A stretch of DNA of 64,000 nucleotides from Paraspadella gotoi. Lineage: Eukaryota > Animalia > Chaetognatha. The notes below the pieces were generated by a model, which saw only the letters and a list, made by a program, of their open reading frames with translations, was not told where the DNA came from and made no database searches. Of the stretch, positions 4,061-54,207 are shown piece by piece. The DNA lies in NCBI GenBank assembly GCA_051294375.1, contig CM119268.1, forward strand, positions 16,945,947-17,009,946, written 5' to 3'. A program made the translations under genes and the position numbers. The stretch's first letter is position 1; each line of letters begins with the position of its first letter.

Positions 4061-6092
4061 TTCATCGTGTCGTCAGCTTCCCTCCTCTCTTCCTCCCCCT
4101 GACTCACCAATCGTCATCAGCGTTGCCTCCAAGATCCACTTGGCCTGCAGGTCCATGTCGTGGGAGCAAGTAAGCTTGGCGACGTTGGTGCGATTGCGAA
4201 AGGACCCGTAGTCGACGATTTTGGAAGTGAAGAAGAAGTGGGAATGCATGAGGGCGCCGAGGAAGATGATCAGGGCGAGAGCGAAGCGGGGGCGTTCTTG
4301 GGGGTAGTAGGCGCGGGAGCTGAAAGAAGGGGGGAAGCGATGGGATTGGATCGGTTAATTGGTCGGTTTGTTTGTTTGTTTGTTTGTTAAGTAGGTTTCT
4401 TGATAGTTTGGTTGATAAGCTTTTGTGGTAGTTTGATTTTTTAATTGTTTGTTTGATTGTTTGGATCGTTGATTGCTTAATTTCTTGTTGGTTCTCTGAT
4501 TAGTTGTTTGATTGTTTCATCGCTGGATGGCGGAAGGAAATAACATTATATATTAAGGGAGTGGTCTTTTCATACAATTGAAACATTTTTTGAAATATTA
4601 TACCACTTCATTGATAGGGAAGCCAGGTACTCTGGGTGTGAATAAACTCGACTGTGAGAGAGTCTTGATTAAAAGCTTGCAGGGGCCGGCTATGTCATTA
4701 TCTTGTAAGAGTGATGGTGGCCTTAAACCACCAAAGCCTGTCCAAGTCAGGGGCAAGTTAGCTTATTTATTAAATGAATGGAAATTTTTATATTGGTTGT
4801 ACCAATGTACCATTTTCATAAAAATGTAATGTAAAATCAAGAGAAAAAAACTGAAATGAAAACAACATGAATTTCTTCACCTGATGGGGTAATAGACGGC
4901 GACGAATCTCTCCAGCGAGAGGACGACGATCGTCCACACGGAACTGAACTGGACGCTCGACTCGACGAATTGAACCACCTTGCAATACCACAGAGACACC
5001 AATAGATGGGCGTAGGTGGTGAACTGCTTGGTCAACAGTCTGTACAGCGTTGACCACAGGACGATAGTGTCAAGAATCGCCAGGGCATTCAGGTAAAACG
5101 TGACGCAGAGGGCCTGGAGTGGGACGTCGGGGAAGAGGAAGAAGAAAAAGGGAAATTTAATCGAAATAGGAAAAAATTCAGCAAAAAAATGGAATAAAAA
5201 GAACAAAGGAACAAATATGAGGAACCCAAAAAGAACAGAGTGTGTGGGAGAAAGAGAAAGAGGAAAATAAAACGAAAATATTTATTTTCAAATAGATTTT
5301 ACTCTTAATTTTAAAATAACTGCAAATGAGAGTAAATGACGGTAAAATAAAATATATACGTATACATTATTAACTTAATTTACTGACGAAATTAATGAAA
5401 AAGAAAGTGAAGAATAAAGTTGTGAAAAGGAAGTTGAGGAAAAATTTAAAAAAAGTAAATAAAAAGAAAAAATAAGAAGAATATAATTAAAGACCTTGAA
5501 TCGTTTGGACTGAAGGACGACGAAGGAAACGAGATTCCCCACCGTCCCGAAGAAGATGACGACGAAATAAGCGACGGTGATGAGATCGAAGCCTCTGAAG
5601 GGATTCACGCGACTCGAGTTCGTCGTCGATCGGGAAGAGTTCTCCGCCTCCGCGCCATCTTTTGAGAATCGGGGTTCAGGGTGGCGGGAAGAATGAGAGG
5701 TTTGATTCATGTTATCACTTATGGTAATCGAAGGCAATTGTAAACATCATCTCGGATGACTGAAACCTCATCATCTTTATCATCGTAATTAACATCGTGA
5801 TCATCGTTATCATCATCTCGTTCATCCTCATCATCGTCATCATCATCAGCATCAATTCATCAACATCATCATCATCTCCACCACCTTTTGTCGTCATTGC
5901 CATCGTCATTGCCTCCATCGCAGCAGCCGTCGTTCTGAAAGTCTGATTGACTGATTCTAATCGTCCCATCGTTTGATTGATCGATTCTAATCGCGTGATT
6001 GATTGATTGATAAAATCACACCCGCGTGTCGAAGAGTTCGTCTCGTTTCCCGCCAAAACGGTGGCGGTGACGTTGTCGAAGAAGAGGCTCAT
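1..6092 (-). CDS. Class A (rhodopsin-like) peptide GPCR, FMRFamide/TRH-receptor-like; multi-exon, runs off the window and across gaps
   Basis: Exons with GT-AG ends: N-terminus with many NxS/T sequons from 6092 to TM1 (..FGTVGNLVSFVVL.., donor after 5495); 5113-4881 (FYLNALAILD; LSLERFVAVYYP = TM2-TM3/ERF motif); 4319-4108 (TM4, ECL2 Cys); ~843-711 (SHSINFIMYVI = TM7); candidate helix-8 exon 120-1 (ARRVPGVQFRLAY). The TM5/TM6 exon was not found and may lie in a gap. The junction between the two N-terminal frames (~5890-5720) is unresolved. Confidence 0.85.
845..1114. other. Assembly gap (270 N); further N spacers at 678-702, 1809-1833, 39876-39885, 53512-53521, 59869-59893
   Basis: N runs seen directly; the fixed 25-N and 10-N lengths indicate a scaffolded or gap-filled draft. 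Confidence 0.99.
1879..2853. mobile_element. Non-autonomous inverted-repeat-bounded element (MITE/Helentron-like) with a telomere-like satellite core
   Basis: Left end TTCTAGTT(tggt)TGGCGACTTCGCC is the imperfect inverse of right end GGCGAAATCGCCATAACTAGAA. Four GGCGA-NN-TCGCC palindromes sit near the left end. Internal CCCTAA-based array. Confidence 0.6.
2036..2817. repeat. Higher-order minisatellite: AACCCTAACCCTAA blocks alternating with three recurring ~30 bp spacers
   Basis: Spacer order C-A-B,C-A-B,C-A-B',A'-B',A', then degenerate (AACCCT)n/ctactc units. Confidence 0.9.
4671..4807 (+). mobile_element. Dispersed short repeat, family B (SINE-like 3' part), copy 1
   Basis: Closely similar to 37439-37580. 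Diverged copy at 36465-36574 and tail-only copy at ~45580-45615. Ends in hairpin ATTGGT-TGT-ACCAAT. Confidence 0.8.
4699..4760 (+). ncRNA. Twister-like ribozyme, type-P5 permutation (family B copy; L4 one nt short)
   Basis: P5 TATCTTGT/GCAAGTTA; AA; P2' GAGT; GA; T1 TGG/CCA; P1 tggcct; TAA; P2 ACC; T2 AC/GT; P4 CCTG/CAGG. Confidence 0.6.
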
Positions 6093-13228: not shown

Positions 13229-13954
13229 CTCTCCCTACTTTTAAATGACTGAAGATTTAAGATTCTTAAAGTATATCTTCACCGTCAAATCATCGCAAAC
13301 CGCAGATAAGTCACCGATCAAATTTAAGATGAGTATAGTGGGAAAACGAAAAATAGAGAGAGAGAGAGAGAGAGAGGCAAAGTCGTTCTAATTTTCGACG
13401 ATACGTTGAGGGTTCGCGTCCCGTGGTGGACGATGTTCGAAAAAAGTATATATATGTCTGTGGATGAGGCGCAAAATGAACTTATGCAATGCCCGACTAC
13501 TCGCATGATTGCGTGGGTGGGCAAGAACTTAATTATGTGATGGTATATTCACACCATCTTACCTCACCTCAATTATTACTTTAAACTATTTGAAATACAC
13601 TAGTCATATTAAAAATATTAAAACGAAAGCTAAAGTGGATATAATAAATTGGTTATTATCAACTTCCTTTACATTTTTAAATAACCGCTTTTCGTTTTGA
13701 TCTTTATATAAACTTCACAGCCCCATCGTACGAAGTAAATAAATAAATATAAAAAAATAGGTCCACGAGAAAAACTAACGTGATGACAAATTCTCCATGC
13801 AAATCAAAATGTCGCCCGTCGTTTGAAGTGATTCTTTTTTGTTTTTTTGTCCGTTAGATGGCGTAAGACGTCATTTCCTGAAGATTCCATCACCAGAGGA
13901 AAAAAATGGTCGAAAAAAATCGCTTTGATGGAATTTTTTTTACTTGGAAGGCAA

Positions 13955-14552: not shown

Positions 14553-16018
14553 CGCACGCGTCGTGACGCGACGCGCGCGCGTTAACGGGTGACGCCTCGA
14601 AAGGGCCGCCGACATCTCACCAGTTTCCCGCCTCCCATGTTTGTATATAATTTTTTTTTTATTTATTTATTTTTGTTTTTTTGGTTTGACTTTACGTCAA
14701 CTATTCCTCTTAGCCTCGTTTCTTTACCAGAACATCTTCTTTTGTGTCTATTTTTTGTTTTATTTCTGTTCCTCCCTTAACCTTGGTCATGATCTTCTGA
14801 CCTTGAGTAATCAGAGTTGTTTTCGCATCAATAAATTTAAAAAATCAATTAATTCGGACGACTCGTGGTAATCTTGTTCATCGTCGTGTTCGTCGTCGCG
14901 GTGGTCGTTGTCGTTGTCGTTGTCTAAATCTGTGCCATCAGAAAAAAAGTAAAAATATTAAATAAAATATGTAGTCGGGTATCTACGCTTACAGCAATTG
15001 AAAAGAAGATTGATGACTTTTCCAGAAAAACTTAAATGAGAAAAATGGTCACAAAATATAGATGTATTGCAAAATGGTTAAGAATTTATCGGAAAAATCA
15101 AACTTTATAAATTATATTCATTTTATATTTTCTCTCTGTGAAATCACTTAGTACTTCACGCTCGCGATTGCTACCGTTCCGGTGTCGTCCGTCCTTTGTT
15201 AGTTTGACGTAGGTTTTCATGAATCTTTTCCACTGAACATTTAGTAAATGATGAATGAAAAGTAGAGATGGTTTAGAAATTTGTTTTTAGTTAAAAATGT
15301 TCATAAAAAATCCTGTAAAACTCAAGTTCAGGGCGGGCGATGTAACTTTTATTAATGCAAAAATTAACAAAATATTTCTCTCCGGTCTGTTCAAATTACG
15401 AGAAAAGAATGACAAAATACCGACGAAATACTAACCAGTAAATTATTTGGCCGAACGGTCAAAATAAGACTTCGGCCGAGAAAGGAAAAAAGACAGAAAT
15501 AACCGAGGCGAGTCATATTATTTAATATTTATAAATTTTGCGCTTATTTCATCCGTTATTTAGTAAGTATAACCTAATTTTCTAATCTTAAACATTTAGA
15601 AAGATTACAAACAAATAAACAATTCAGACATAACATATTATTAGCGTTTTAAAACAGAAAAAAAAAGTTCCTTCCTATCTTAAAAAAAAGCCTCCGCTTT
15701 GGAATTTCCACTTAGTTTTTATCGTTGGTAAAAAAGTTTGCCAACTGGGAATGGAATCACGAGCGGCGGCGGCGGCGGCGGCGGCGGATGCTGCGTGGGC
15801 GGCCTGGGATTCTGATTTGGTGGTAAGTCAGCGAGGGAAGGCGGAGAGTCAGAGTAGAGTTGGCAGAAGCGGCGAGAGTTGAGAACCTTCGAAAGGCTTA
15901 TCGCTCGGCCTCTTATCTTTTCAATTCACAAAACATCTCACGAATCGGGAGTGATTTTTTCTTTCTCTCTTCCTTTTTTCTCTATTTGAAAAAAGACCTT
16001 TGCTTTGCATAACAGCTT

Positions 16019-17355: not shown

Positions 17356-19791
17356 GCTAACTCACTCTTGTTTCGCGCGTTGATTAATAATTTCATGAAA
17401 ATTATTTTTTAATTATATTTAAATTTTAGTTTCTACTCGGCCCCGACAGGTGGATATCGTAAAGACGTTGGGGGCCTCGGAATCCATCGCCGGGGGCGCG
17501 TTGGGAATCATAGGCGGAGTCATGCTGTTCACCCCTGCAGCTCCGGCCGGCCTTATTATCGGACTTACCGGTAAAGCTACGCAGATTGGAAAATAATCTC
17601 CGTTCGAGACGTTGAGTATGGCACAGACTTTTAGTTTTTAAATTGTATTCAATTAATTAAAAATATCAGAATGCATTTGATTCCGATACGACTTACAAAT
17701 AAATACCTAGTACATTTTGGTAATTAAAGCTGTCGTCTGAAGCTTTTTGTAATTTTACTTACCAAATATTTAAACATCATCGATTTTGTATCAGTTCATC
17801 GTAATGACCGACATTTTCGCGTCTCATTCCTTTCCGTTGTTGTTGTTGTCGTCGTCGTCATCGTTGTCGTCGCTTTCCGGCTTTTGTTATGGCGTTTCCA
17901 TTAATTCTTACGCGAACAGTTGGATTTATGGATTTCATAAACCTTTTTCCGATTTTCCACTTTTTTCTCAGCGTGAACCAATCCAAGGATTTTTGAGAGA
18001 TCTTTTTAGAATTGAGACTCGACTTTCGATGCTGATATCACTTCCCACTTCTTCCTTCCCACTTCTCACATCTCACTTCTCCCAATTCACTTCTCAGGTT
18101 TAGGTCTCGGATTGAAGGGGTCATTGCTCGAAGGAGGCGCCGCGGTCGCCGGCAAAGTCGCCGGAAAATCCGTTCTCAAGGTAAAGTGGGTTTATCAGAG
18201 ACGCGAAGATCTTTCCTTTGTCTTCACGCCCGCGGAGACGAGCGTTCGTGGTTTCACCCAGACGAACGTGAGTTTCCAAGAGAAAAAGTCGGGAATAAAA
18301 ATATGAGACTTTTATTGTACAGCAATCAGAAACTCGTAAATAGGGAGCTTCTTTCAAGCGAAATAGTATCAGTGAGATTTCAAGCGAAAATCTCTCTGAA
18401 AATTGAGGCGGGAGAAAACTGCCCGCGAAAATATGACCGTAAAAAAAGAATTGGCCTAAAAGGGGTGAAAAATGAGTAATCAAGGCTAAATATCTTTAAC
18501 AAGATATATGTTTAGTACCGTTCACATTATGTTTTTATTATTAGATCGAGATTGAGGAACTGAGTGAAAAATGACAAATAGAGAGAGAGCGAGAGAGAGA
18601 GAGAGTGAGAGAGAGAGAGAGGGAGAGGGAGTCCCTTGAGGCTTGAACAATAGTAAAAGTACTACAAATGTTAATATCTACAACAACATTAAGGAATTCG
18701 TTAAACGAACCGAAGACGCGAACATTGGACTGAAAAACTTCGTCGCCATTTTGAGGCGACTCGAAGAAATGGCGGGACGATTGGCAAAAAAGGAACAACA
18801 ACGACGACGACGAAAACAACAGCAGAAGGAAGAACAGTTGAAGGAGCTGACGATTGAGAACAACGAAGGTTCTTGTCACCGTTGGGTGTGTCGATGTGAA
18901 AAAAGGAAAATTTATCTTATCGTGTAAAATTTTGAGTCTACTATGTCGTTACTATATTTTACTTCTTTTTTTTTAAATTGTTGAGATAACAGATATGTTC
19001 AAATAGAAAACAGAAAAAGAGAACGGACGTTAAAGATTAATTGAAAAGGGCGTGCCCACTCAAGCCCGGTTAGCTCAGTCGGTAGAGCACAGGACTCTTA
19101 ATCCTGGGGTCGTGGGTTCGAGCCCCACATTGGGCGCCCTCTTTAAAATAATTCACTTTCTTTGAGATGATTTTTTTAAATTCACCCCGCCTATATACAT
19201 GACAAGAAAAAATCAATAATAATTTTGAATTTAACTCTTATCGCAATCCTACAGAAGACTTTTTTTATATATTTTTTTTACATTGACGCATTCAAAGTGT
19301 TTATCAGTAAATGCAGTCGGAACAGCGGAAAATGAGGACGACAACGGCGAAGACGACGACGACAATGACGATGACGAACCGGACGCCAACACCGACGCCG
19401 GTGATCAACCTACTCGTCGACAGCACGTGATCTTCCTCAAAGTCCTCAACTTCATCGCGACGCTGTGGCTGCGGCGACTGCTGCAGGAGCGGCGGTGCTG
19501 CGGCGGCGATCGTCGCTCGTCTCTCGATTTGTCTGCTGAGGCGGAGGCGGAGCTGGCCGACGTTTTCGGGGACGGAGTTCTGGCCGACATGTGGAAGGGA
19601 GTGCAGGTGAGGGGGTTCGGGAATGAGAAGGAGAGGAAGATAGCCGACTTTAATTCATTGATTAATTTCATAACTGTTTCACATCTTTTTATATAATTTT
19701 TAATTATTTTGTTACATTTCCTATTCTTTTGAGTAAATTTAATTACAATTAGATGATTAATTCTAATTTTTATGTATCACTTCACAATTTA

Positions 19792-24942: not shown

Positions 24943-25359
24943 GAAGGAAGAGAGAGAGAAAAAAAGAGAGAGAGAGAGATAGACAGATTGAAAACTGGTT
25001 TTTCAAGTTGTCATCTGAGCTAAATTCAAGTAGCGGCGAGTGGCAAGTAATTCTTCTCCAAATAAATTAGACAAAAAATTTAAAAAAATGTTTTTGTTGA
25101 AATATTGAATCAAATTCAACAAGCGTCTGTGGCAAAATCGAAGTTAAAGGAATTAACTTCTTTGTCCAAAATAACAACAACGACAAAAAAAAATAGACGC
25201 TATTTAAAAACACTTAAAAAACGATTGTACGTTGAAAAAAGAAAGGAATCTACTACAAAAAAAAAACAAAAAAAAAAAAAGCTACATATAACAAACAAAC
25301 GAAAGAGCGAAAATAAACAAAAAACGTAGGTAATCTAAATCCAGGCAGCCGACGAACCC

Positions 25360-27825
25360 ATGAAGAAATTTGCAGGCATTCCGCTCGACCTTCGAACGAC
25401 GATGGGCAAGAAATTCGGTTGGCGTTGGTCCTTCCTCATCGTCGCCGCCATCGCCGTCGTCTTCGTCCTCGTTGGAATTCCGCGGTCCGCGCTACGCACA
25501 GGAACCGGAATCGCGCTACGCTCCTCCGGCGTCGACGTGGACTTTATGAGGAAGCGACAAGGGCCCGTCGGGATTGTCCGCGGGATAGGAAGAGTGGGTC
25601 AGGGGAGCGGGAAGGTGGAGCGAGGGAGGAAGGAGGAGTCGAAGGAGAGGGAGGGACGACGGAAGTCGGGAGGAGGTGGAGGAGGAGGGGAGGGGTGGAG
25701 GATGGAGAGTGGAGGAGTGGAGCGGATCAGAGGAGCGGCGCGAATCGGAGGAGCGGATTCGTCGAATCGAGCCGAAATGAAGGTTGAGAAAGAAGAGGGA
25801 GGAAAGAAAAAAGGAGGAATATTTGTTCGTCAAGAAGAAAAAAGAATAAAAGGAGAACAAACGTATTTCGGTAAATTAAAAGAAAAAGAAATGACCGATC
25901 ACAAACGAGCGAAAATCTTTGGAGAAATGAACGAGAGGAAATCAAAGCAGACGAAAACATTTGAGGATATTGAGAAACGAACGAAACAAGTGAATGATTT
26001 GCACGACGCATTGGATTCAGCGAAAAAAATGGCGGACGAACAGAGAAAAGATCAGGAAAAGTATTTGGAAGAACTAAAGATACGACGGAAATGGAATGAA
26101 GAGTTGGAGAGAAAGAAGGGATCGATGACGAGTGCAGAAAGATCGAAGATCGAACAAAAGGACAGCGAAAGATTTGAAGCGAGAGAAAGAAAAATGGCCG
26201 AGGAAGACATGAAGAATAAGGAACTACAAAAAGCGAAACAACTAAATAAAATAATTGAAAACAAAGAAAAAACTGATGACACAACCGAACGACAACGACA
26301 ATTGAATAAGTTGGGGGAAGAACAAAGTAAAGGACAGAAAGGAATTAATCAGAAAACTGAAAATCTGAAGAGGAATTACTCTGGAGACTTGTTGGACCAG
26401 CGGAAAATAGGACAACCGTTCACTTATCAAAAAATGAAGCCGCAGATTGGGAAAAAAATGGAAAATGAGCAGTTGAATATGAAAAAGGAATTAATGAAAC
26501 AAGAAAAAGCGGAAAAGAACGGAACCGCATCGGCGGGAGCGAAAAGTAACCAAAAAGATTATCTTCAACAACAACAACAACTAAAAACAACAGAAGTAAT
26601 GAAAACAAATTTACAGCAAGAAGCTACGAAGAAGTGGACGAGGATAAATAAAGGACAAGCGGTTGTCAATAAAGAGCCGATGAATCGTCAAACCCGATTT
26701 CAAAACGAGGAACAGTTGAAGAAAAATACAACGCTTACTACAAAGGCGGGAAGAATAAAATCTGGATCCAAATGGAGCGAAGTGGAAGCTGGTGAAACTT
26801 TGAAAAATAAATTAGCAAAGATGAAGGAAAAAAAGAGTTACAAGGATATATATAACAAAACACGATTTTCTGAACTAAGAACAACTAGAAATGTTACGAA
26901 GCCAAGTTTGAAAGATCAACAAGAACCTTTGCAGCGTCGTTCATATAATCGCAGTCGAATTAATGAGTGGGGAAAAGGGAATCCTAACAAGCAAAGTCGC
27001 GATGGAGAAAGGATGGAGGACAAGCGAATGAAAGAAGATATAAGGCCTAATTTCGCAGCGCAGAACGAAACTGAACAGAAATCAATTGGGCCGACAGCTA
27101 TGAAGGTTAATCAACAAAATTCAATGACAAATGGGTCTAGTCAACTGGCGATCAATCAACGACGGCGACCTCGTCCCAATGTATTTCCAAAACAGGATAA
27201 ATGGCAGAAAAGAGAGAAACCGATCATGATGGATAAAACAAAGAAAAACTTGGAAGACGAAACTTTGAGAGAAAAAAGAAAAGAGGAAAAGCAGAAAATA
27301 AAGAAAGGAACAATCGAAATCGAAAGTGGAGGGAAGCAATTTGAATCTGTAGGAAGGAGCAATCAGAATGAGAAAAAGAAAGAAGAGTTTGGAATCGGAA
27401 GAAGGAAGGAAACTTTGAATAAAGTGGGAGGAATTCAAATAGGAAAAAGAGAGGAAAAATCTGAATTGATAGAGGGAAGTGACAATCAAAATGGGAGAAA
27501 TGAAAGGGTCATAAATATTGAAGGAAAAAAAAAACAATCCGAAGTAAACAACAATCTAAATCAAATGGAGAAAAGAACAATAAAGACTGGGGGAAGACCT
27601 GAGAAATTGGAATTGAAAGAAAGAAATAGCAATCAAAGTTGGAAAAAAAAAATAATAAATAAAATCAGTAAAAGAAGAGACCCGAAGAGCGAAGCAATCC
27701 GAATTGGTGAAAAACAGAGACAGTCTGAAATGGAAGCAGGAATTATGAATAAAAATTGGAAGACGGGAGGATCAATCAAAAGGGGCGAAAAAGCAAGCAG
27801 AAAGCAGAAGAAGCAACCAATTTAA
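25360..27825 (+). CDS. Intronless 821-aa type II membrane protein with long Lys/Glu-rich coiled-coil/disordered ectodomain; function unknown
   Basis: 2.5 kb open frame in AT-rich DNA. Basic N-tail followed by a single TM (FLIVAAIAVVFVLVGI). No recognisable catalytic domain. Confidence 0.7.
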   Translation: MKKFAGIPLDLRTTMGKKFGWRWSFLIVAAIAVVFVLVGIPRSALRTGTGIALRSSGVDVDFMRKRQGPVGIVRGIGRVGQGSGKVERGRKEESKEREGRRKSGGGGGGGEGWRMESGGVERIRGAARIGGADSSNRAEMKVEKEEGGKKKGGIFVRQEEKRIKGEQTYFGKLKEKEMTDHKRAKIFGEMNERKSKQTKTFEDIEKRTKQVNDLHDALDSAKKMADEQRKDQEKYLEELKIRRKWNEELERKKGSMTSAERSKIEQKDSERFEARERKMAEEDMKNKELQKAKQLNKIIENKEKTDDTTERQRQLNKLGEEQSKGQKGINQKTENLKRNYSGDLLDQRKIGQPFTYQKMKPQIGKKMENEQLNMKKELMKQEKAEKNGTASAGAKSNQKDYLQQQQQLKTTEVMKTNLQQEATKKWTRINKGQAVVNKEPMNRQTRFQNEEQLKKNTTLTTKAGRIKSGSKWSEVEAGETLKNKLAKMKEKKSYKDIYNKTRFSELRTTRNVTKPSLKDQQEPLQRRSYNRSRINEWGKGNPNKQSRDGERMEDKRMKEDIRPNFAAQNETEQKSIGPTAMKVNQQNSMTNGSSQLAINQRRRPRPNVFPKQDKWQKREKPIMMDKTKKNLEDETLREKRKEEKQKIKKGTIEIESGGKQFESVGRSNQNEKKKEEFGIGRRKETLNKVGGIQIGKREEKSELIEGSDNQNGRNERVINIEGKKKQSEVNNNLNQMEKRTIKTGGRPEKLELKERNSNQSWKKKIINKISKRRDPKSEAIRIGEKQRQSEMEAGIMNKNWKTGGSIKRGEKASRKQKKQPI

Positions 27826-29178
27826 GGAAAATATAAGGGCAATCGCGAATAAAGAAACAAAAGAGCAACAAAATTGGAAAAAGAAAGGAGCAATCGAAAA
27901 TAAAAAGGGAGAAAAAAGCGTAAAAATAGCAGAGTATGGACGATACAAGTTTCAGATCAAGAAATGAGAGGATGAAATGTTAAATAAATAGAAGGGTCAG
28001 AAGAAAGTAAAGGAAGGACTCTTTTAGTAATATAATAGTTCCAACGAATAAAAAAACTATTACTTTAATTTTACCTCTCTTTCTCTTTTTTGTTTTCTAC
28101 TCAAGTTACTCTACATTTGTCTATTCCGTTGCATTTACTTTTGTTTTATCATTAACTTGTATCATAATTTTTTCACTCACAATGAAAAGCCAGAATATAT
28201 AACTTTTGGAGAATCTATTGTTCCTTTATTCATTGCATTCTTTTCGATCTAATAAAATTCTGACATACGTAATGATTAATCGTTGACGTCTAATTTAAAA
28301 CACTTATTGATTCTAAACATCCAAATTTCGAATTGACGATTTTGCGTCTCAATCTTTCAGTCTCGAGTTCAAGCCCGCGACATTCCGCCTTGAAAAAAAA
28401 AATTAAAAAATTGTGTCTAAAGAAATTCCGTCTTTTATGTATTGATGATTAGAGTAATATCAATTGCTTTTTTAGGAAAAAAAACATTGTCATTTGTCAA
28501 TTTGCCAAATCTTACGAATTTTAGTGTAAAACCGTATTGGTGAAATAAATAAGATAATGTATATTTTGCGAATGAAGAATTTAAATATTTATTTCGCGGA
28601 TTAAATATTAAAATCAAAAGACTGTGGCAACAACAACACGCGACCTTAGAAGATCTCTTTATAAAAGGGAATAAGTCAATAACGCTATTTTCGGTCATTG
28701 ATTCCAAAGTGATTCATTAAGTTAACCCAGGAATGATTTTTCCCCCCAGACCATTTTAAGATTAATTTATCAAATGAGGAAATAATTCCGAGAGATTTCT
28801 GGTGAATCTCGATTGGAAGGAACTCTCCAAGTGGAAAAGGGAGAATCTAGAGGAAACACGACGCAGATCGAGACCAGAGAGAAACCATAAGGGAGATTTT
28901 TGATAAAAAGGAAAAAGGAACAAGAAGGAAAGAATATGTCTTAGAAATTTATCAATTCAAGTCGTACAGTTTCGCTTTTCCTCGAGCGAGAACCCGTTTT
29001 CCAAAATAATATTTTTACTCTCAGCGTAGAGCTACAATTCATTTTCTGTCTTTCTACGTTAATTCTATGCAGTTGATGAGCGGAAATTGTAAGATATAAG
29101 CATAGGTATATTACATAATATATGTAGTCGGGCATTGCCTAGGTTCACCCCGCCAAGAATCCTGACACTTTCAGTTGT

Positions 29179-29400
29179 GACCCGGTGGCTCATTGAGTAA
29201 AGCCATCAGCTCATGACCACTAGGTACCGGGTTCAATCCCAACCCAGTACCTACCCTGCGGGAAGCGTGAGGACGGCCGTAAGCCGCCTTGGGGGCATAG
29301 CAAACCCTCAAGCCTGGTTCCAAGCCCAGGGACCCGTTCCATGGCTGCTAGAGGGGTTTATAGAAGTTACGGACAGTCATCTTCAGCCCACGTAGCGCCT
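29179..29400 (+). mobile_element. tRNA-derived SINE (family A) carrying a twister-like domain
   Basis: A-box-like GGTGGCTCATTGAG and B-box GGTTCAATCCC, followed by a GC-rich structured body. No intact tRNA cloverleaf. Confidence 0.75.
29258..29337 (+). ncRNA. Twister-like ribozyme, type-P5 permutation (best-preserved copy)
   Basis: P5 GCGGG/CCCGT; P2' GCGT; GA; T1 GGA/TCC; P1 cggccg; TAA; P2 GCC; T2 GC/GC; P3 CTTGGGGG/CCCTCAAG; P4 CCTGG/CCAGG enclosing the 8-nt loop TTCCAAGC. Confidence 0.72.
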
Positions 29401-29607
29401 TATCCACATATATCATAGCGCGAGAAGAGAAAGTGAGTAATCGCGAGGGACATGGGGTTATTCCCAAAGATACCTAAGGTCGTTTGAAGTGATTTCCGGT
29501 CTGTTTTACCCTTTTTTAGAATAAAGGAATTCGAGGGAATGAGGAATAAGCGTTTTACTTTGAATATAATTGAGTTCTTCCACTCCAACTGGGTTAACAA
29601 ACCCGTC

Positions 29608-43629
<14,022 letters not shown>

Positions 43630-45050: not shown

Positions 45051-45270
45051 TTCCGTTCACGATTTCCTGTGACGTGAATCGTTGAGACGCGAGAATAAAT
45101 TTAGTTTTGTTTGAGGAAAATCTAAGCGAAGGAATTAAAACTACCTCGCTTTTTATTCGTCCATTATTTTATTTAATTTCGTGACGGACATATAAACTTT
45201 ATATTTAAAGGACTTCATGTCGCGAAAAAAAAATCCAGTATGGTGGACTAAAATCCACCAACCGTTCATC

Positions 45271-45460
45271 GGTGGCCATTGGTGCCGCAGGCAAGTCATT
45301 CGCCTCCCAACTCAAAGGTCCGGGGTTCTAGCCCGGTGACCGCCTAGCAATTAAGAGGGACGGGACGCTTAACCCGCCTCTAACTCGGTGTTCCAGCCTG
45401 ATCCGAAGCTCAGGGACTGCTTATATTGAACGGTTCTGTCACTAACACATGACAATAATT
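45271..45460 (+). mobile_element. tRNA-derived SINE (family C) carrying a twister-like domain
   Basis: tRNA-like head 45271-45344 (acceptor-like GGTGGCCA/TGACCGCC, T-arm CCGGG-GTTCTAG-CCCGG), immediately followed by a structured body. Confidence 0.75.
45347..45420 (+). ncRNA. Twister-like ribozyme, type-P5 permutation (family C)
   Basis: P5 GCAATT/GACTGC; AA; P2' GAGG; GA; T1 CGG/CCG; P1 gacgct; TAA; P2 CCC; T2 GC/GC; imperfect P3; P4 CCTGA/TCAGG with loop TCCGAAGC. Confidence 0.7.
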
Positions 45461-48400
45461 ACTGTCTCTTCACCATTTTTAAAATATTTATATTAATCTC
45501 AGTTGCTAAAGGAACAATAGCTGGTAAATTGTCATAAAATTTTATTTTTTATGATCTGGTATTATATAAAATGAAAATGAATGGATAATTTTTATATTGG
45601 TTGTACCAATTTCATAAACCTTTTTTATATTTAAGTTCATTTGTTTAAAGATACGAAAGCACGAACAATCAAAAATGTGCTGCCATCTCTCAGAAACTGA
45701 CTAAATTTTGATGAGGGCCCTAAAAACAAAAGTCAAGTTAAAATATTTTCTAATTTAAGATAAAAAGTCGCTAATTAAATAAACTTCAATTTCATAAGAA
45801 TACTCTGTTACCTTTTTGTTTGCAGGTTTCAAGGTATTCAAATTGTATTCGCAAAGGATGTATACTTGTATATACATTAAGGCGGAACAAGTTAAAAACT
45901 AAGAGTTCTGTAATATAAATAACTTTTAAATTTAAAAAAAATTGATATGATGTATAGTTGATAACATACCATGATGGAAAAAAAAATTGTCCCAGTTACT
46001 TTCCAGTTATTTTTCAGCATTTTAATGTAAGAATCAAAAAATAAATTTAATTCATATATCAAAAAAGAGTAATATTTAAAATACGTTAATGCTGTAGATG
46101 TTAGAGAATATCATTTTTAAATTGTAAAGTATCACTAAAAGTTATGAGGTTTTGGGTAACCTTTCTGTAAGCAAAGTTATCATTTTTATTTACCTTTGGA
46201 TGTATTATCAGAATCAAGTATCAAACAAATTCAAAAATAAAAAATAAAAAATTTTGTTGAAGTGAAAAACAATGCAGCAACAACTCAAGCCTGGTTTAAT
46301 TTTTAAAGGATCAATCTTTTTCACTGCTTGCTAAGGACTATTTTTTACCCCAAATCTGATAAAAAATATCATGTCAGAGATATAATATTAAAAACAATGT
46401 GAGTAGTCCTCTTAATAAAAAAAAAGTGAAAACAGTTAGAGACAATCTATGCATTGAATAATTTTATGCTGTTAAGAAATAATCATTTTATTCAGTCATA
46501 TTACCTATTTATTATTTATTATTATTTATTAACCAAAAATATATTTAACAATAAAATTAACTGACTTTTCCAAACCGCAACAATTCTTTTTTCCATCATG
46601 GTAAAAACATTTAAAGTTTATCGTATTACTATAAATCATAACAAATTTTTTTTTCAAATTCAAATAAAGCTTAAAAAATAAATAAAAAATATTATTACAA
46701 GATTTTCAAATTTTTATGTTTTATTGGTTAAAATTAGCAAAAACTAAAAAAATTATGGTATAATGATAAAGATGATGATTTTTAAGGGTTTTTTCCTTAT
46801 TTAACCCACTTATCATCGAAATATTAAAAAATGAATTATACATTGGTGAAAACACTTTTTATGGGCTAAATCCGTTCTTAAAATAATTTTTTTACAAAAA
46901 AATGTTTTCATTGCCTATGCATAAATATGCTTAACTAGTTAAAAAAGTGATTGTAAATATTGATTCAGTATATAAAGGACAAATGAATTTTATATTACAG
47001 AACTCCTAATGAAAAAAAGTGATCAATTTTGGCCCGCCTAAATATACGTATAAAATATTGTTATTGCATTTCGCTAACTACATGAACGTCTCGTTTTCTG
47101 CCTTACGAAGCTCCCATAATTTTAAAAGGTTTGATGCACTTGGCGTTTATTTCTTTCTGATATTATCAGTCGGGACTACTAGACACAATATTCAAAGGCC
47201 ACTGCTTAAGAAGTACTCGTAAAACAAATTGACAAATCGCTGAGTTTTTAGGCTGAAGGGACACAATTTTTTTTTGGTTTTTGGTTTTGTTTTATCTCGA
47301 AACAAAGTTTTTTTGGGGGGAAAGAGTGAGAAAGAGATACGAAAAAAACGAGGAGAGTAAATCATGGTACAATATGACATAAAGGGACCATGAATGAAAA
47401 CAATTATATTCCTAAAAGCACACACAACATGGAACCGTAAAAAACGAATAAGTTAAAAACAAGATTGTCATCGTTCAATAATTTTAAGAGTCAAAATTTC
47501 AAAATTTATTTAAACGTTAATTTATTCTTATTTGAAAACTCCTTTCTTTCCAAATTAGACGTTTTTTTACAAAAAAAAAATTGAACGATAACGCGTGTTA
47601 GAAATCGACACAAAAATAATTTATTGAAAAAAAACGTTCAACGATCTACTTATGAACAATATTTCTCTCGGAAAAACCAATGAATGAATTTTTTTCATTC
47701 ATTACAATTTTTTCTATTCACACAAAAAATGCCGCGTAAAAATATCGCGTGAATCACGCTGTGATATGACGCAGAAAAAATACACATAAAGACACAGAGA
47801 CACGAAAAACTCTTGACTCTCTCGAATTAATTAATTAATTAACTTATCATGTTTATGATATATTCTCGTCTTCATCAAACAATGAAGGACGTAGTTAAAA
47901 CAGGTAAAGTGGGGGAATATTTTCATAAGTTAAATATATATATATATATTCATCTCAGTATGTAAACAACATTAACAACAGTAACAACAGAGAACAGTAT
48001 GAACGATATGACGAGGTTTTTGAAAATTGAAAGGAGTCCCAACAAAAGATAGTGGGATCTCTTTACAAAGTTATACTGCAAAACGTGATCCGGAAATGGG
48101 TCAGAAAATAAAAGAGCGAGAGACTGAGCGGAGAGGAGAGAGACAGAGGAGAGAGAGAGAGGAGAGAGAGGAGGAGAGAGAGCGAGCGGAGGGAGAGAGA
48201 GAGAGATGAGATGAGATGGATGGGGACGAAGGGAATCGGAGAGATGAGCGAGAGCAGATAGAGAAGAGGAGGGAGAGAGGAGGGGAAAAGGAGCGAGTGA
48301 TGAGATTGGAAGAAGAAAGACGGAAGGAGAGAGGAGAGGGAGAGGAGGAGAGACGAGAGGAAGAGAGGGAGGGTTGGGAGAGGGAGAAGAGAGGGAGACG

Positions 48401-50434: not shown

Positions 50435-52655
50435 TCAACTCTGCGTCAGCAGCAGCGACTCCAACTCTTCGGCCGATCGATAGAGAAAAGCGGCCGACTC
50501 CCTGTAGCCGGCGATTAACTGCCTGACCGCGACTACCTCGCCGGCGCTGAGATGACAGCCCGTCGGCGGGTGCGTCGGCGGCGGCGGGTGCTGCGGATGG
50601 CCCGCGAGATGCGGCGGCGCTGGCGGCGGCGGCGGGTGCGGCAGCGTAGGCCCGTTAAACAGGGCGGGGTGAGGAGGAGGGAGAGCGGGGGCGGCGACGA
50701 CGGCAGCCGTAGGGGAGCGGGGAGAGTGAGGGGCGGAGGAGGAGGCGGACGAGGAAGATAAAGGAGAGAAGGAGGAGGAAGAGGAGGAGGACGTTTTGAC
50801 GTCGTTGTTATTGGCGGCGGCTGCCGCTGCTGCGGCGGCGGCGTCGGCGGAGGACACGGTCGGCGTTTTGGGGCGAGGCACGAACTTACTCAAGCTGAGG
50901 TCGGTGGGGACTGTTTGATTAGGGTTGGGGAAGAGGAAAATCCCTTTCTTTTTAATTTCGTTCTCGGTTCATTTTGAATGATACATATTTTAATTATTAC
51001 TGAACGTATTTAAAAAAAAAAACAATATAAAAAAAATCAAAAGGGGATAAAAATTAATTATTTCTCCTGTCTTATTCGCTGTCACATTGTGATCACGGTA
51101 AGTATCTCTATCATAATTACGATATTTATCACTTTATCACAGTTCATCACTCACCCGCCGCTTGTGACGAAGCCGCGGCGAAGAACGCTTCCTGTACCGG
51201 CGCCGGGGGCGCCTGGTAAGCAGCACCTGGCGGAGGCGCTTGTGGCGCCTGAAACGGCACCTGGAATGGCGGGCCTGACTGAGGCAGGTGCGAAGGACGG
51301 AAGATGCAGGAGCTGCTTCCGGTCCCGTTGGCGGGCTCGGCGGGCGGAGGTGGCGGGAAGAGGAGCGGGACGGGGGAAATAGAGCAGGGACGGGTACTGG
51401 GAAGGGGGAAGAGGGGCAGAGGGAAAGGAGAGGGAGCGGGAGGACAATCATTATCGAGTACGTCTTAGTGGGGCTACTATTTAACATAATTTTTATATAA
51501 CTATAAAATTAAGAGCTTTGATAATGAATTTTAATATTTTGTTATTGTTAAATAATTATAAATAATCACCCATCATCTTCGACGGCGACGTAACCAAGAG
51601 GAAACGGTGCAACTCCGTTGACGCAGACCGGGCCACCGATTCCGTTCGCCATGCTAACCGCCATGCCGCCCGCCATGCCGCCCGCAACGACGCCGTTAAG
51701 GTAAACGCCGTTGACGGCGCCATTTGGAGACGACGCAGGGAGGACGTCCGGAGACGCGGCGCCGGATTTGGGCGACGATGACGCTGGCAGATTCGGCGTC
51801 AAATGGATCTGAAGGGGAAAACGATTTAATTTAAATAATTTAATTGAATTAATTGACTTTAATTCAGCATTTGCGCTTTGCCGATTTCATTAAAGCCTGA
51901 TTGAAAAAAAAATAGGGCGATATTAAAATTTATTAAGACATTCCACAGGAGCAATCGGCCTCACACTCGGACACACCTGAGAATATGGCACACAGGGCAA
52001 ACTCACAAATCCGATCTTTCCAACATGGCCGATCCGAAGGGCCTTCGTACCAGAGAGTGACCAACCTCTCCAGTTGGTTTCACCAGGTTAATGTAATTGG
52101 CCGTTTGAAGCCACCATTCACAATGACCAATTTTCCTCACCTGACTAATCTGATTGGCCCTCAGAGGCTCGAGCCCCAACCGAATTCTCTTGGCGTTGAT
52201 GCTCTCGTTTTCGCAGGCGGAAGCGAGGATGGCCTCCGCCGCCGCAGAAGTCAGATGCGGAGGGGTGGGCCTTGAGACGATTTATTCATTCATTATATTA
52301 TATTGTAAAAAAAAATACACTATTAAAATATGATAACTTTTTTTATGCCGAATAGTCGTCGAGGCGCTGCTGATAACGTTTTTCAAGCTTAACGACTTTG
52401 GTTTACTCCAGTTTCTGGGCAAATATAATTGCTTTTTGTTTATTGCATGCAGTCAATACCTCAGCTCTGGAGGGAGATGACTAAATCCGTTGGTTCCTGC
52501 AACTGATGCGACAGCCGTCGCCTGAGATGCTGCATTCGATGCTGCAGTTGAAGCGTGTGAAGCGACCGAAGCTGCATTTTTCCCGTTGGGAGATAGAGGT
52601 TCGAAACCCGTCGAGCCTTCGCGCGACTTGCGGAAGCGTCTGATGTATGTGAGAG

Positions 52656-52718
<63 letters not shown>

Positions 52719-54207
52719 CATTTGCAAGTACGTTTTCTTCAATATATGACTTTTTTGAGTAATTTATAAACTTAAATTTCCTAATGTAACTAACTCCTAA
52801 TTACTAGCCATTAACTTACCTACAAGACTTGAGGTAAGTCCTGATCCTTTTCCTCGCCCGATCATGAAATTCGGGGAACTGGCGATTGCAAGAGTCGATG
52901 ATGGCTTGGATTTTCTCCTTCGGTTGCTTGGAGATCGGGACGCAACGATCGAGGTTTTCGTCCACGAAGAGGCGGACGAACATCTGGGGGGGGGGCGATA
53001 TGAGAAAAAGTGGGAGTTGGATGAAAATTAAGGAAAAAGGAAAATTTAGGAAAACAACGTAAAAATAAAGAAAGGCGGGGAAAAAAGATAGAAAGGTAAA
53101 CAAACTAGAAACAAAATAATCAGCAAACTAAAAAAGGATTAAAAAAAAAGAAAGGTAAATTATAGAAAAGAAAAGGAAAAGGATAAAGACAATAAGCGAC
53201 TAACGTTAAAAGCCTTGAGCCTCTCCGAATCGAATCCGTGGCCGGGAGGAAGTTTATCTTCGTCTTCGTCGTCGTCTCCATCGTCGTCTTCAACCTTGAC
53301 GGCTGCGGCTTGCAGCAAAGAATCTATGCCGCAAACGGGCGTCGATGATGCGGTGCCGTTGACGCAAATTGGCGCGGCGCCGCAAGCACCTGGGGAGCCG
53401 GCGTTGCCGTTTATACGGCGCCATCCGTCGACGTGATTGACCGACGATTGGTATATTGCGGCGCTCGGGGCGTCGATGGGATTGTCCGGCGTCGAAATCA
53501 CTGTGCGAAGCNNNNNNNNNNGAGAGAAAAGATAGTGCATTCAACGAATGGAACGGAATTGATGGAACATGAGAAGAGAAAAAAAAAGATTGGAATAAAA
53601 AATTAACACATACTCTCTCTCTCTCTTTTCTTTTTTTTACTTTTTCCCTCAAAACATGGAGACAGAGATTGAGACAGAGATATTTTTTATTTAAGATTAA
53701 CTTGTATTGCTTAAAAATGTAACATTTATTGACAAAATATCTGGCAAGGAAAAAATTAGGCCTGACAAACATTAAAATAGTCACATAGCCTATATCTGAT
53801 AGCATCTGTGATAAATCCACGACATCATCATTGTTATCAAACTTTCAAAAAGTAAGTTCTCCCTTTTGAACTCACCCTTCCGGCTTCTTCTTCCGTCATC
53901 TTCCTCTTCCTCCCATTCCTCGTCGTTGTCAGGCCTTTTGTTTCTCTCGTTTTTTCTCCGCAAGGGGCGTTGAGATCTTCGCTTTTGGCGGCGTCCTCGT
54001 CTCCGCCGCTCGGATTGACGTTGGCGTTGACGGCGTTGATGATCGCGGCGACGGCGGCGGTGGCGGCGGCGGTGGCGGCGCCGTCGTGCCCGTTGACGGC
54101 GTTGTTACCGCCCCGGGCGTCGCTCGCCGGGCAACTGACGATCTCGCCGCACAGTCCCGCCAAATTTTCGCGAGGACTCTGCGGCGGCATCGTCGGCCGC
54201 GATTTGA

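Follow-up and report, generated by a model that had tools for sequence, protein, structure and literature searches.

A candidate solo LTR combining a tRNA-like head with a P5-type twister fold in the chaetognath Paraspadella gotoi

Introduction

LTR retrozymes are known from plants, in which they carry hammerheads. To our knowledge, almost no biological roles of twisters have been established beyond the 5′ ends of RTE elements. The plant elements place a hammerhead within LTRs of 300–400 bp and are described as replicating through circles (Cervera et al. 2016, PMC4918200); a 2026 preprint likewise presents LTR retrozymes as mainly a plant phenomenon (10.64898/2026.07.22.740005). Helenus TRIMs, which stand with Cassandra and Ajax among the TRIMp3 elements, carry a tRNA-like segment in their LTRs and have a Gypsy-type PBS (Kojima 2024, PMC10886601). 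RTE LINEs, Perere-3 among them, have been described as bearing T-variant twisters at their 5′ ends (Liu et al. 2021, PMC8501958), and SINE-like elements of schistosomes combine a Pol III promoter with a hammerhead (reviewed in PMC6765202).

Here we analyzed a 64,000-nt stretch of the P. gotoi genome (assembly GCA_051294375.1, contig CM119268.1, positions 16,945,947 to 17,009,946, forward strand), hereafter the window. We read its family a repeat, with a probability of about two in three, as the solo LTR of a Helenus-like non-autonomous LTR retrotransposon (TRIM) that carries a tRNA segment together with a P5-type twister and that may have been propagated by a two-LTR retrozyme mechanism.

Results

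Sequencing contigs from four of the nine listed runs were aligned to stretches of the window including 29000–29690. In the contigs on this stretch, depth rose from the flank level to a plateau at ~29120–29407; among the positions listed, loose ends accumulated at 29123 in three of the four runs and at 29408 in all four, and unrelated AT-rich sequence lay beyond both pile-up points. The depth plateau and the pile-ups thus delimit the family a element (Table 1), and the span of 29179–29400 proposed for it in the earlier note was wrong. Relative to the flank, depth on the plateau was higher by factors of ~6,600 in run X2, ~11,600 in X1 and ~8,600 in X5 (run X9, whose flank is uncovered, falls outside these ratios); such a ratio is not a copy number, and some of the runs possibly derive from the window's own sample. 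The genome likely holds thousands of family a copies. The ratio of 5′-half to 3′-half depth was 0.91–1.39, indicating no 5′ truncation gradient, and the 3′ end has neither an A-rich nor a microsatellite tail. Since the flank is AT-rich, duplication parses of 5 and 6 bp fit this copy as well as the 4-bp one, and the two termini match as inverted sequence at just four of five bases. No second full copy was found in the window by blastn. Two further observations concern the family: a short match to its 5′ end lies at 14955–14982, and loose ends before 29247 mark a subfamily that has a divergent B-box region, GGGATCGATCCC, with the twister half in common.

A Pol III A/B-box head directly 5′ of the twister, as claimed in the earlier note, was confirmed: against the consensus, the A box (29186–29196) has two mismatches and the B box (29230–29240, GGTTCAATCCC) has one. 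Compared with the tRNA-Lys gene of the window, the head shows 65% identity across 65 nt. It received no tRNA call from ARAGORN or Rfam, and with both silent we ruled out a functional tRNA gene. In the leader of other family a copies we found CCCCGCCTATAAG, a TATA-like word ~24 nt before the head. Neither family a nor family b, described below, contains a run of four T between the head and the element end.

Table 1 Features of the three twister-bearing repeat families in the window
Feature	Position	Strand	Description	Basis
Family a element	29123..29408	+	286 bp, TGTAG...CCACA termini	Depth step and loose-end pile-ups, sequence read
Left target-site duplication	29119..29122	+	TATA	Exact 4-bp match at depth-defined ends
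Right target-site duplication	29409..29412	+	TATA	Exact 4-bp match at depth-defined ends
Family a leader	29123..29178	+	56 nt, putatively U3-like	5′ of tRNA head, common to copies
Family a tRNA-like head	29179..29249	+	Degenerate cloverleaf, CAT at anticodon position	
Family a P5-type twister fold	29258..29337	+		Sequence read, descriptor; Rfam Twister-P5 sub-threshold
Family a P1 segment	29274..29279	+	CGGCCG, self-complementary; 1–2 bp hairpin or 6-bp intermolecular duplex	
Family a predicted cleavage site	29280..29281	+	U/A	Position in twister consensus (PMC8501958)
Family a trailer	29338..29408	+	71 nt, U5-like	
Family a internal-deletion copy	13459..13501	-	Both ends kept; ~25 nt of 5′ end, 14 nt of 3′ end	
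Family b element	45239..45472	+	234 bp, TA...CA ends	
Family b leader		+	33 nt	
Family b tRNA-like head	45272..45343	+		
Family b twister	45347..45420	+		
Family b trailer		+	52 nt	
Family c twister	37468..37528	+	Without P3; T1 UGG/CCA, T2 AC/GU, P1 AGGCCU	
Family c twister	4700..4759	+	One L4 base lost	
Family c twister	36466..36526	+	Decayed copy	
Family c 3′-end fragment	45575..45616	+	Sharp family end ...TTTCATA (45614..45616)	

As read from its sequence, the structure behind the family a head is a real twister-like fold. Its strands run in the order P5-AA-P2′-GA-GGA-P1-UAA-P2-GC-P3-P4-P5′ partner, with GCGU as P2′ and GCC as P2. P5 comprises 5 bp including one G-U (29258-62/29333-37), P3 comprises 8 bp with one G-U (29288-95/29305-12), and the 5-bp P4 (29313-17/29326-30) encloses TTCCAAGC. 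The conserved L4 sequence UNNNAAGC is present, the L1 UAA faces G29269-A29270, and both pseudoknots, T1 (GGA/UCC, 29271-73/29319-21) and T2 (GC/GC, 29286-87/29324-25), are Watson-Crick throughout. The P5-type order, the lengths of P3 and P4 and the two pseudoknots had all been reported in the earlier note and can be read in the sequence; the predicted cut, which the same note had put between 29280 and 29281, falls at U29280/A29281, where the twister consensus places it. The note omits that P2 has 3 bp (29265,67,68/29283-85) with C29266 bulged and that the 6-nt P1 segment can give just 1–2 bp as a hairpin. Natural twisters are reported to tolerate P1 defects and stem bulges (PMC11662667).

Strand order, the GA/UAA loop, both pseudoknots and the P4 loop agree with the Rfam Twister-P5 model (RF02684), whereas the P3 insert, the bulged 3-bp P2 and the 6-nt P1 depart from it, and the score reached 17.1 bits against a gathering score of 37.6. 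In the Rfam check suggested by the earlier note, the Twister-P5 model returned this fold below threshold; no gathering-level twister match was found in the window, a whole-window Rfam scan giving solely the tRNA-Lys gene, and no hammerhead family matched in the window or region scans. A generic twister descriptor matched the window three times, at 29269, at 45359 and at an AT-only stretch that is a false match, compared with a mean of 0.14 and a maximum of 1 on 100 dinucleotide shuffles. The nested minimum-free-energy (MFE) fold was no stabler than that of shuffles (z 0.83), a statistic that is uninformative here. In the monomer, the lowest-energy fold traps the catalytic strands in an inactive hairpin and is favored by 9.3 kcal/mol over the active-like nested fold, a comparison that leaves out the pseudoknots. 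Self-cleavage of the family a twister is a prediction. The earlier note suggested that the cut might define template ends for retrotransposition; the predicted cut does not mark insertion ends, for the well-supported pile-ups of copy ends are at 29123 and 29408, and no pile-up of copy ends at the predicted cut was seen among the loose-end positions listed (24 of 1063 for family a, with none at 29281, and 24 of 919 for family b).

We then compared variation within family a, using 40 of the 43 variants that reach at least 3% and excluding 29299, which is private to the window copy. Nine twister sites vary: four in the L3 loop, three in stems, and one each at the bulged base and a junction G. All three stem-base changes preserve pairing (C-G to U-G twice, U-G to U-A). 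Variable sites make up 6 of 16 unconstrained twister positions and 3 of 64 paired or conserved ones (Fisher p 0.0015); outside the twister, 23 of 206 sites vary. None of these 40 variants falls on a catalytic or pseudoknot base. The family a twister fold is apparently under selection, and its retention in amplified lineages suggests that the RNA structure serves the mobility of the element.

Family b has the same order of parts (Table 1) and a predicted cut between 45370 and 45371. Its plateau reached ~14,500 and 46,000 times the flank depth in two runs, its flanks read CCAG and CCAT (a 4-bp duplication with one mismatch), and its termini show no inverted match. In the window copy, five twister pairs are broken, one each in P5 and P1 and three in P3; at a 5% threshold, the majority letters of the family mend all of them as well as the single broken pair of the acceptor stem. 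T1 is disrupted by a variant at a CpG, 45405 G>A, which accounts for 12%, 4% and 1% of the depth in three runs; the T stem, too, is disrupted by a minor variant. With majority letters, the 7-bp acceptor stem and the 5-bp T stem of the head are both complete, so the head may possibly act as an RNase P or Z substrate beyond its use as a promoter. In addition, a perfect 7-bp hairpin, TGGTGGA/TCCACCA, lies at 45241–45261, just inside the family b 5′ end. Families a and b can be aligned solely over P4 and the B box; barely alignable as they are, they have the same leader-tRNA-twister-trailer layout.

Family c differs from both. No tRNA head was seen at its window copies, which begin at different points and look 5′-truncated; given this variability and the sharp 3′ end, the family is perhaps LINE-mobilized. 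Its twister sits ~55 nt before that end, and the high-depth repeat stretches of the family are 4560–4810, 36457–36580, 37436–37580 and 45575–45616. The "five-copy system" of the earlier note is consequently not a single family, the five twisters dividing into one of family a, one of family b and three of family c. T1 reads GGA/UCC in family a, CGG/CCG in b and UGG/CCA in c, and T2 reads GC/GC, GC/GC and AC/GU, respectively. Across the five window copies, both partners have changed in 9 of 15 core pairs, and pairing holds in 87.8% of cells. Neither value was reached in any of 500 shuffles, and slid partners paired in 19–57%; because there are only three families and the structure was drawn from them, the covariation count is support rather than a probability. 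The family c pattern gave a result of 3 against 0, but these copies were themselves the source of the pattern, so the result is circular.

The ends of family a (TG...CA) and family b (TA...CA), together with apparent 4-bp duplications, have the anatomy of solo LTRs. Like Helenus, both families form an LTR-sized unit with a leader and a tRNA-like segment conserved at boxes A and B (PMC10886601), and animal Helenus elements have a 4-bp target-site duplication and abundant solo LTRs; for the duplication, two copies are readable here, copy a exact but ambiguous and copy b with one mismatch. TA...CA ends also occur in some published Helenus LTRs (supplement of PMC10886601). In contrast, Helenus elements consist of two LTRs around a PBS and a PPT within less than ~1.3 kb, whereas the window copies are solo, and in most of the published Helenus LTRs examined the tRNA is followed by a T-run before a short trailer, where families a and b have a twister and no T-run. 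Neither the window nor the loose-end positions listed in the contig tables (24 of 1063 and 24 of 919, unweighted) revealed a two-LTR copy, a PBS, a PPT or an internal region. For family c, the 5′-truncated copies and the unseen head argue against assignment to the LTR class.

An LTR of this design has a precedent. The LTRs of Helenus-2_SyJa and Helenus-2_SyUm from gall wasps (DataS1 of PMC10886601) have no T-run and, by eye, carry an apparent full type III hammerhead right behind the tRNA, composed of a GUC triplet, a 7-bp stem I, CUGAUGA, a 4-bp stem II, GAAA and a 6-bp stem III, with complementary loops. Since the internal parts of these two elements include a PBS and a PPT, they exemplify the design in complete elements. 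The hammerhead goes unmentioned in PMC10886601, in whose text "twister" does not occur and "ribozyme" occurs once, in a reference title; a word search of the supplement, where line breaks can hide matches, found no twister in published Helenus LTRs.

The earlier note had labeled the family a repeat a tRNA-derived SINE, and a related account would make it a true tRNA-SINE, mobilized by LINEs, whose twister was inherited from an RTE 5′ UTR (a bipartite RTE-type SINE). By the established mechanism of SINEs, a constant segment upstream of the Pol III start cannot be part of the element. Copies of families a and b share leaders of 56 and 33 nt, respectively, upstream of the Pol III head, so the label fails for both, as the missing tail and, in family a, the TG...CA ends with an apparent 4-bp duplication also indicate. 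The RTE-derived account draws on the internal A and B boxes, on the 5′-truncated look of family c, on the occurrence of twisters at RTE 5′ ends (PMC8501958; PMC7761336) and of RTE 5′-UTR pieces behind the head of many tRNA-SINEs (PMC5786205), and on the resemblance, by eye, of the family b P3 to that of the schistosome twister (Table 1 of PMC8501958). RTE twisters and family a are alike in having a twister core in an animal retroelement, a P3 and a weak P1 (PMC8501958). Yet RTE twisters are P1-type, truncated at the cut and part of non-LTR elements whose 5′ end, beside the target-site duplication, is the cut itself, whereas the families here are complete and P5-type, and the predicted family a site is internal and matches neither end. 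The sharp, tail-less 3′ ends, the depth without 3′ bias and the absence of a long target-site duplication (3–6 bp matches only) count against a SINE as well. We consider this origin quite unlikely, and for families a and b it is largely refuted given the fixed upstream leader.

The fixed position of both ends would suit a MITE-like element, a non-autonomous DNA transposon with, for example, TGT...ACA ends and a 4-bp target-site duplication, that captured the tRNA-twister cassette and carries it as a passenger. So would the internally deleted copy that retains both ends, and the absence of a PBS or PPT from the window and from the contig positions listed. However, the terminal inverted repeat is no longer than four of five bases, variation within the family preserves twister pairs, which a passenger would not need, and two barely alignable families have the layout in common; we assign this explanation a low probability. 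Other classes were rejected: a Helitron, by the absence of TC...CTRR termini, and a Crypton, by the absence of a terminal direct repeat (both by the rules for these families), and a tandem non-LTR retrozyme, no head-to-tail joint being present among those listed (15 of 100 and 15 of 83).

The earlier note did not know the pairing as a standard described SINE architecture. No description of a twister behind a tRNA head, or in an LTR, was found in the full-text literature, subscription papers and Repbase aside; Pol III repeats with hammerheads are already known (PMC6765202). Schistosome SINE-like elements and Penelope/non-LTR retrozymes resemble family a in joining a Pol III promoter to a ribozyme and in a palindromic stem-loop suiting dimers, and are distinguished by a hammerhead, tandem arrays and the lack of LTR ends, where family a has a twister and LTR-type ends.

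Discussion

Reading family a as the LTR of a TRIM suggests how such an element might move. In a two-LTR parent, Pol III transcription would begin at the 5′-LTR head and continue into the 3′ LTR, and the twister, cutting at U/A in the LTRs, would stand in for the absent oligo-T terminator. The cut would release a unit-length RNA with a 5′-OH and a 2′,3′-cyclic phosphate, which could circularize, be primed at the PBS and be inserted by a Gypsy-type reverse transcriptase and integrase, as proposed for plant retrozymes; the integrase would leave the TG...CA ends and the 4-bp duplication. Solo LTRs could then arise by recombination or, again as proposed for retrozymes, straight from circles. Those such as the window copy would be dead ends, as their own transcript lacks the 56-nt leader.

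Plant retrozymes share with this scheme a ribozyme in the LTR (here assigned by structure), 4-bp target-site duplications, solo LTRs, a non-coding sequence and dependence on Gypsy elements (PMC4918200). They differ in having a type III hammerhead and no tRNA-derived Pol III promoter, where the animal element has a tRNA head followed by a P5 twister; circular RNA has been demonstrated for them and is a prediction for family a.

In a variant of the mechanism, the twister would cut in the 3′ LTR only and act purely as a terminator substitute, yielding a linear RNA with 29179–29280 repeated at both ends and no circle. Ordinary LTR replication requires such a terminal repeat (PMC10886601), the LTR does lack an oligo-T terminator, and the competing inactive hairpin could silence one twister copy. 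Because both LTRs would be identical, however, silencing just one of them needs an extra rule, and plant retrozymes cut in both LTRs (PMC4918200). We give this variant only a slim chance.

We tentatively propose, as a model that is itself rather doubtful, that the twister of these animal Pol III retrozymes cleaves as a domain-swapped dimer in which the P1 hexamers of the 5′ and 3′ LTRs form a 6-bp helix, so that cleavage would be on only in full-length two-LTR transcripts and low in the thousands of solo LTRs. Self-complementarity of the P1 hexamer holds for family a, for two of three family c copies (a terminal U-U interrupts it in the third) and for family b when position 45365 carries the majority letter; the innermost two bases of the hexamer, which would form the loop of a hairpin, are GC in families a and c and CG in b. 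With RNAcofold, a swapped dimer was the lowest state of two family a copies (-75.1 vs 2 × -31.5, or -63.0, kcal/mol), with the P2 register shifted, and an active-like swapped dimer reached -60.7 vs -44.4 kcal/mol for two active-like monomers. In Penelope-element hammerheads, a short palindromic stem-loop enables cleavage as a dimer (PMC6765202). Our confidence in the dimer stays low because there are only three families and P1 is reported to be dispensable in monomeric twisters (PMC8501958, PMC11662667). A literature search found no natural dimeric twister; this would be the first, and it would couple cleavage to two-LTR transcripts. Taken together with the apparent wasp Helenus hammerhead, it would imply that Pol III TRIMs repeatedly trade their terminator for a ribozyme.

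If the solo LTR reading is correct, family a is an animal counterpart of the plant retrozymes built on a different ribozyme, and an animal LTR family of high copy number with a tRNA head and a twister would unite Helenus Pol III TRIMs, retrozymes and twisters. It would explain how the transcript of a Pol III TRIM passes the 5′ LTR yet ends in the 3′ LTR, would lead one to expect small circular RNAs of a new class, and would provide a short natural construct for dimeric twister catalysis. It would also carry two warnings: tRNA-headed repeats classed as SINEs could turn out to be solo LTRs, and twisters of the families found here go undetected at Rfam thresholds.

Collection scans and other features of the window

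Scans of viral contigs returned 0, 0 and 0 matches to further family copies, and a metagenome scan returned one locus, a chance match on a bacterial contig without T1. Among 11 viral loci matching loose twister patterns, one is a real twister, a P5-type on a phage contig (L011:501-568) whose P1 is long and whose 3-bp P2 is bulged as in family a; it scored 35 bits, just below gathering. Further loose patterns matched 19 bacterial and 4 viral loci, of which the sole pass (L034) is the same place as L011.

A general repeat search of the window was dominated by microsatellites. We searched 150 stop-to-stop frames with Pfam (149 of the 224 higher-complexity frames among 695 in total, plus one added) and detected no reverse transcriptase or integrase, the only match being NOL4; exons of a NOL4-like gene (PF23079) lie at 50438–53127 on the minus strand. 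An exon at ~4850–5050 (minus strand) resembles a GPCR transmembrane segment by eye, with no Pfam match, and an 828-codon open frame at 25339–27825 (plus strand), rich in lysine and glutamate, has a predicted N-terminal hydrophobic stretch and no Pfam match. The intact tRNA-Lys(CTT) gene occupies 19064–19136, and ~44 nt downstream of it, at 19180–19203, lies a piece matching the family a leader.
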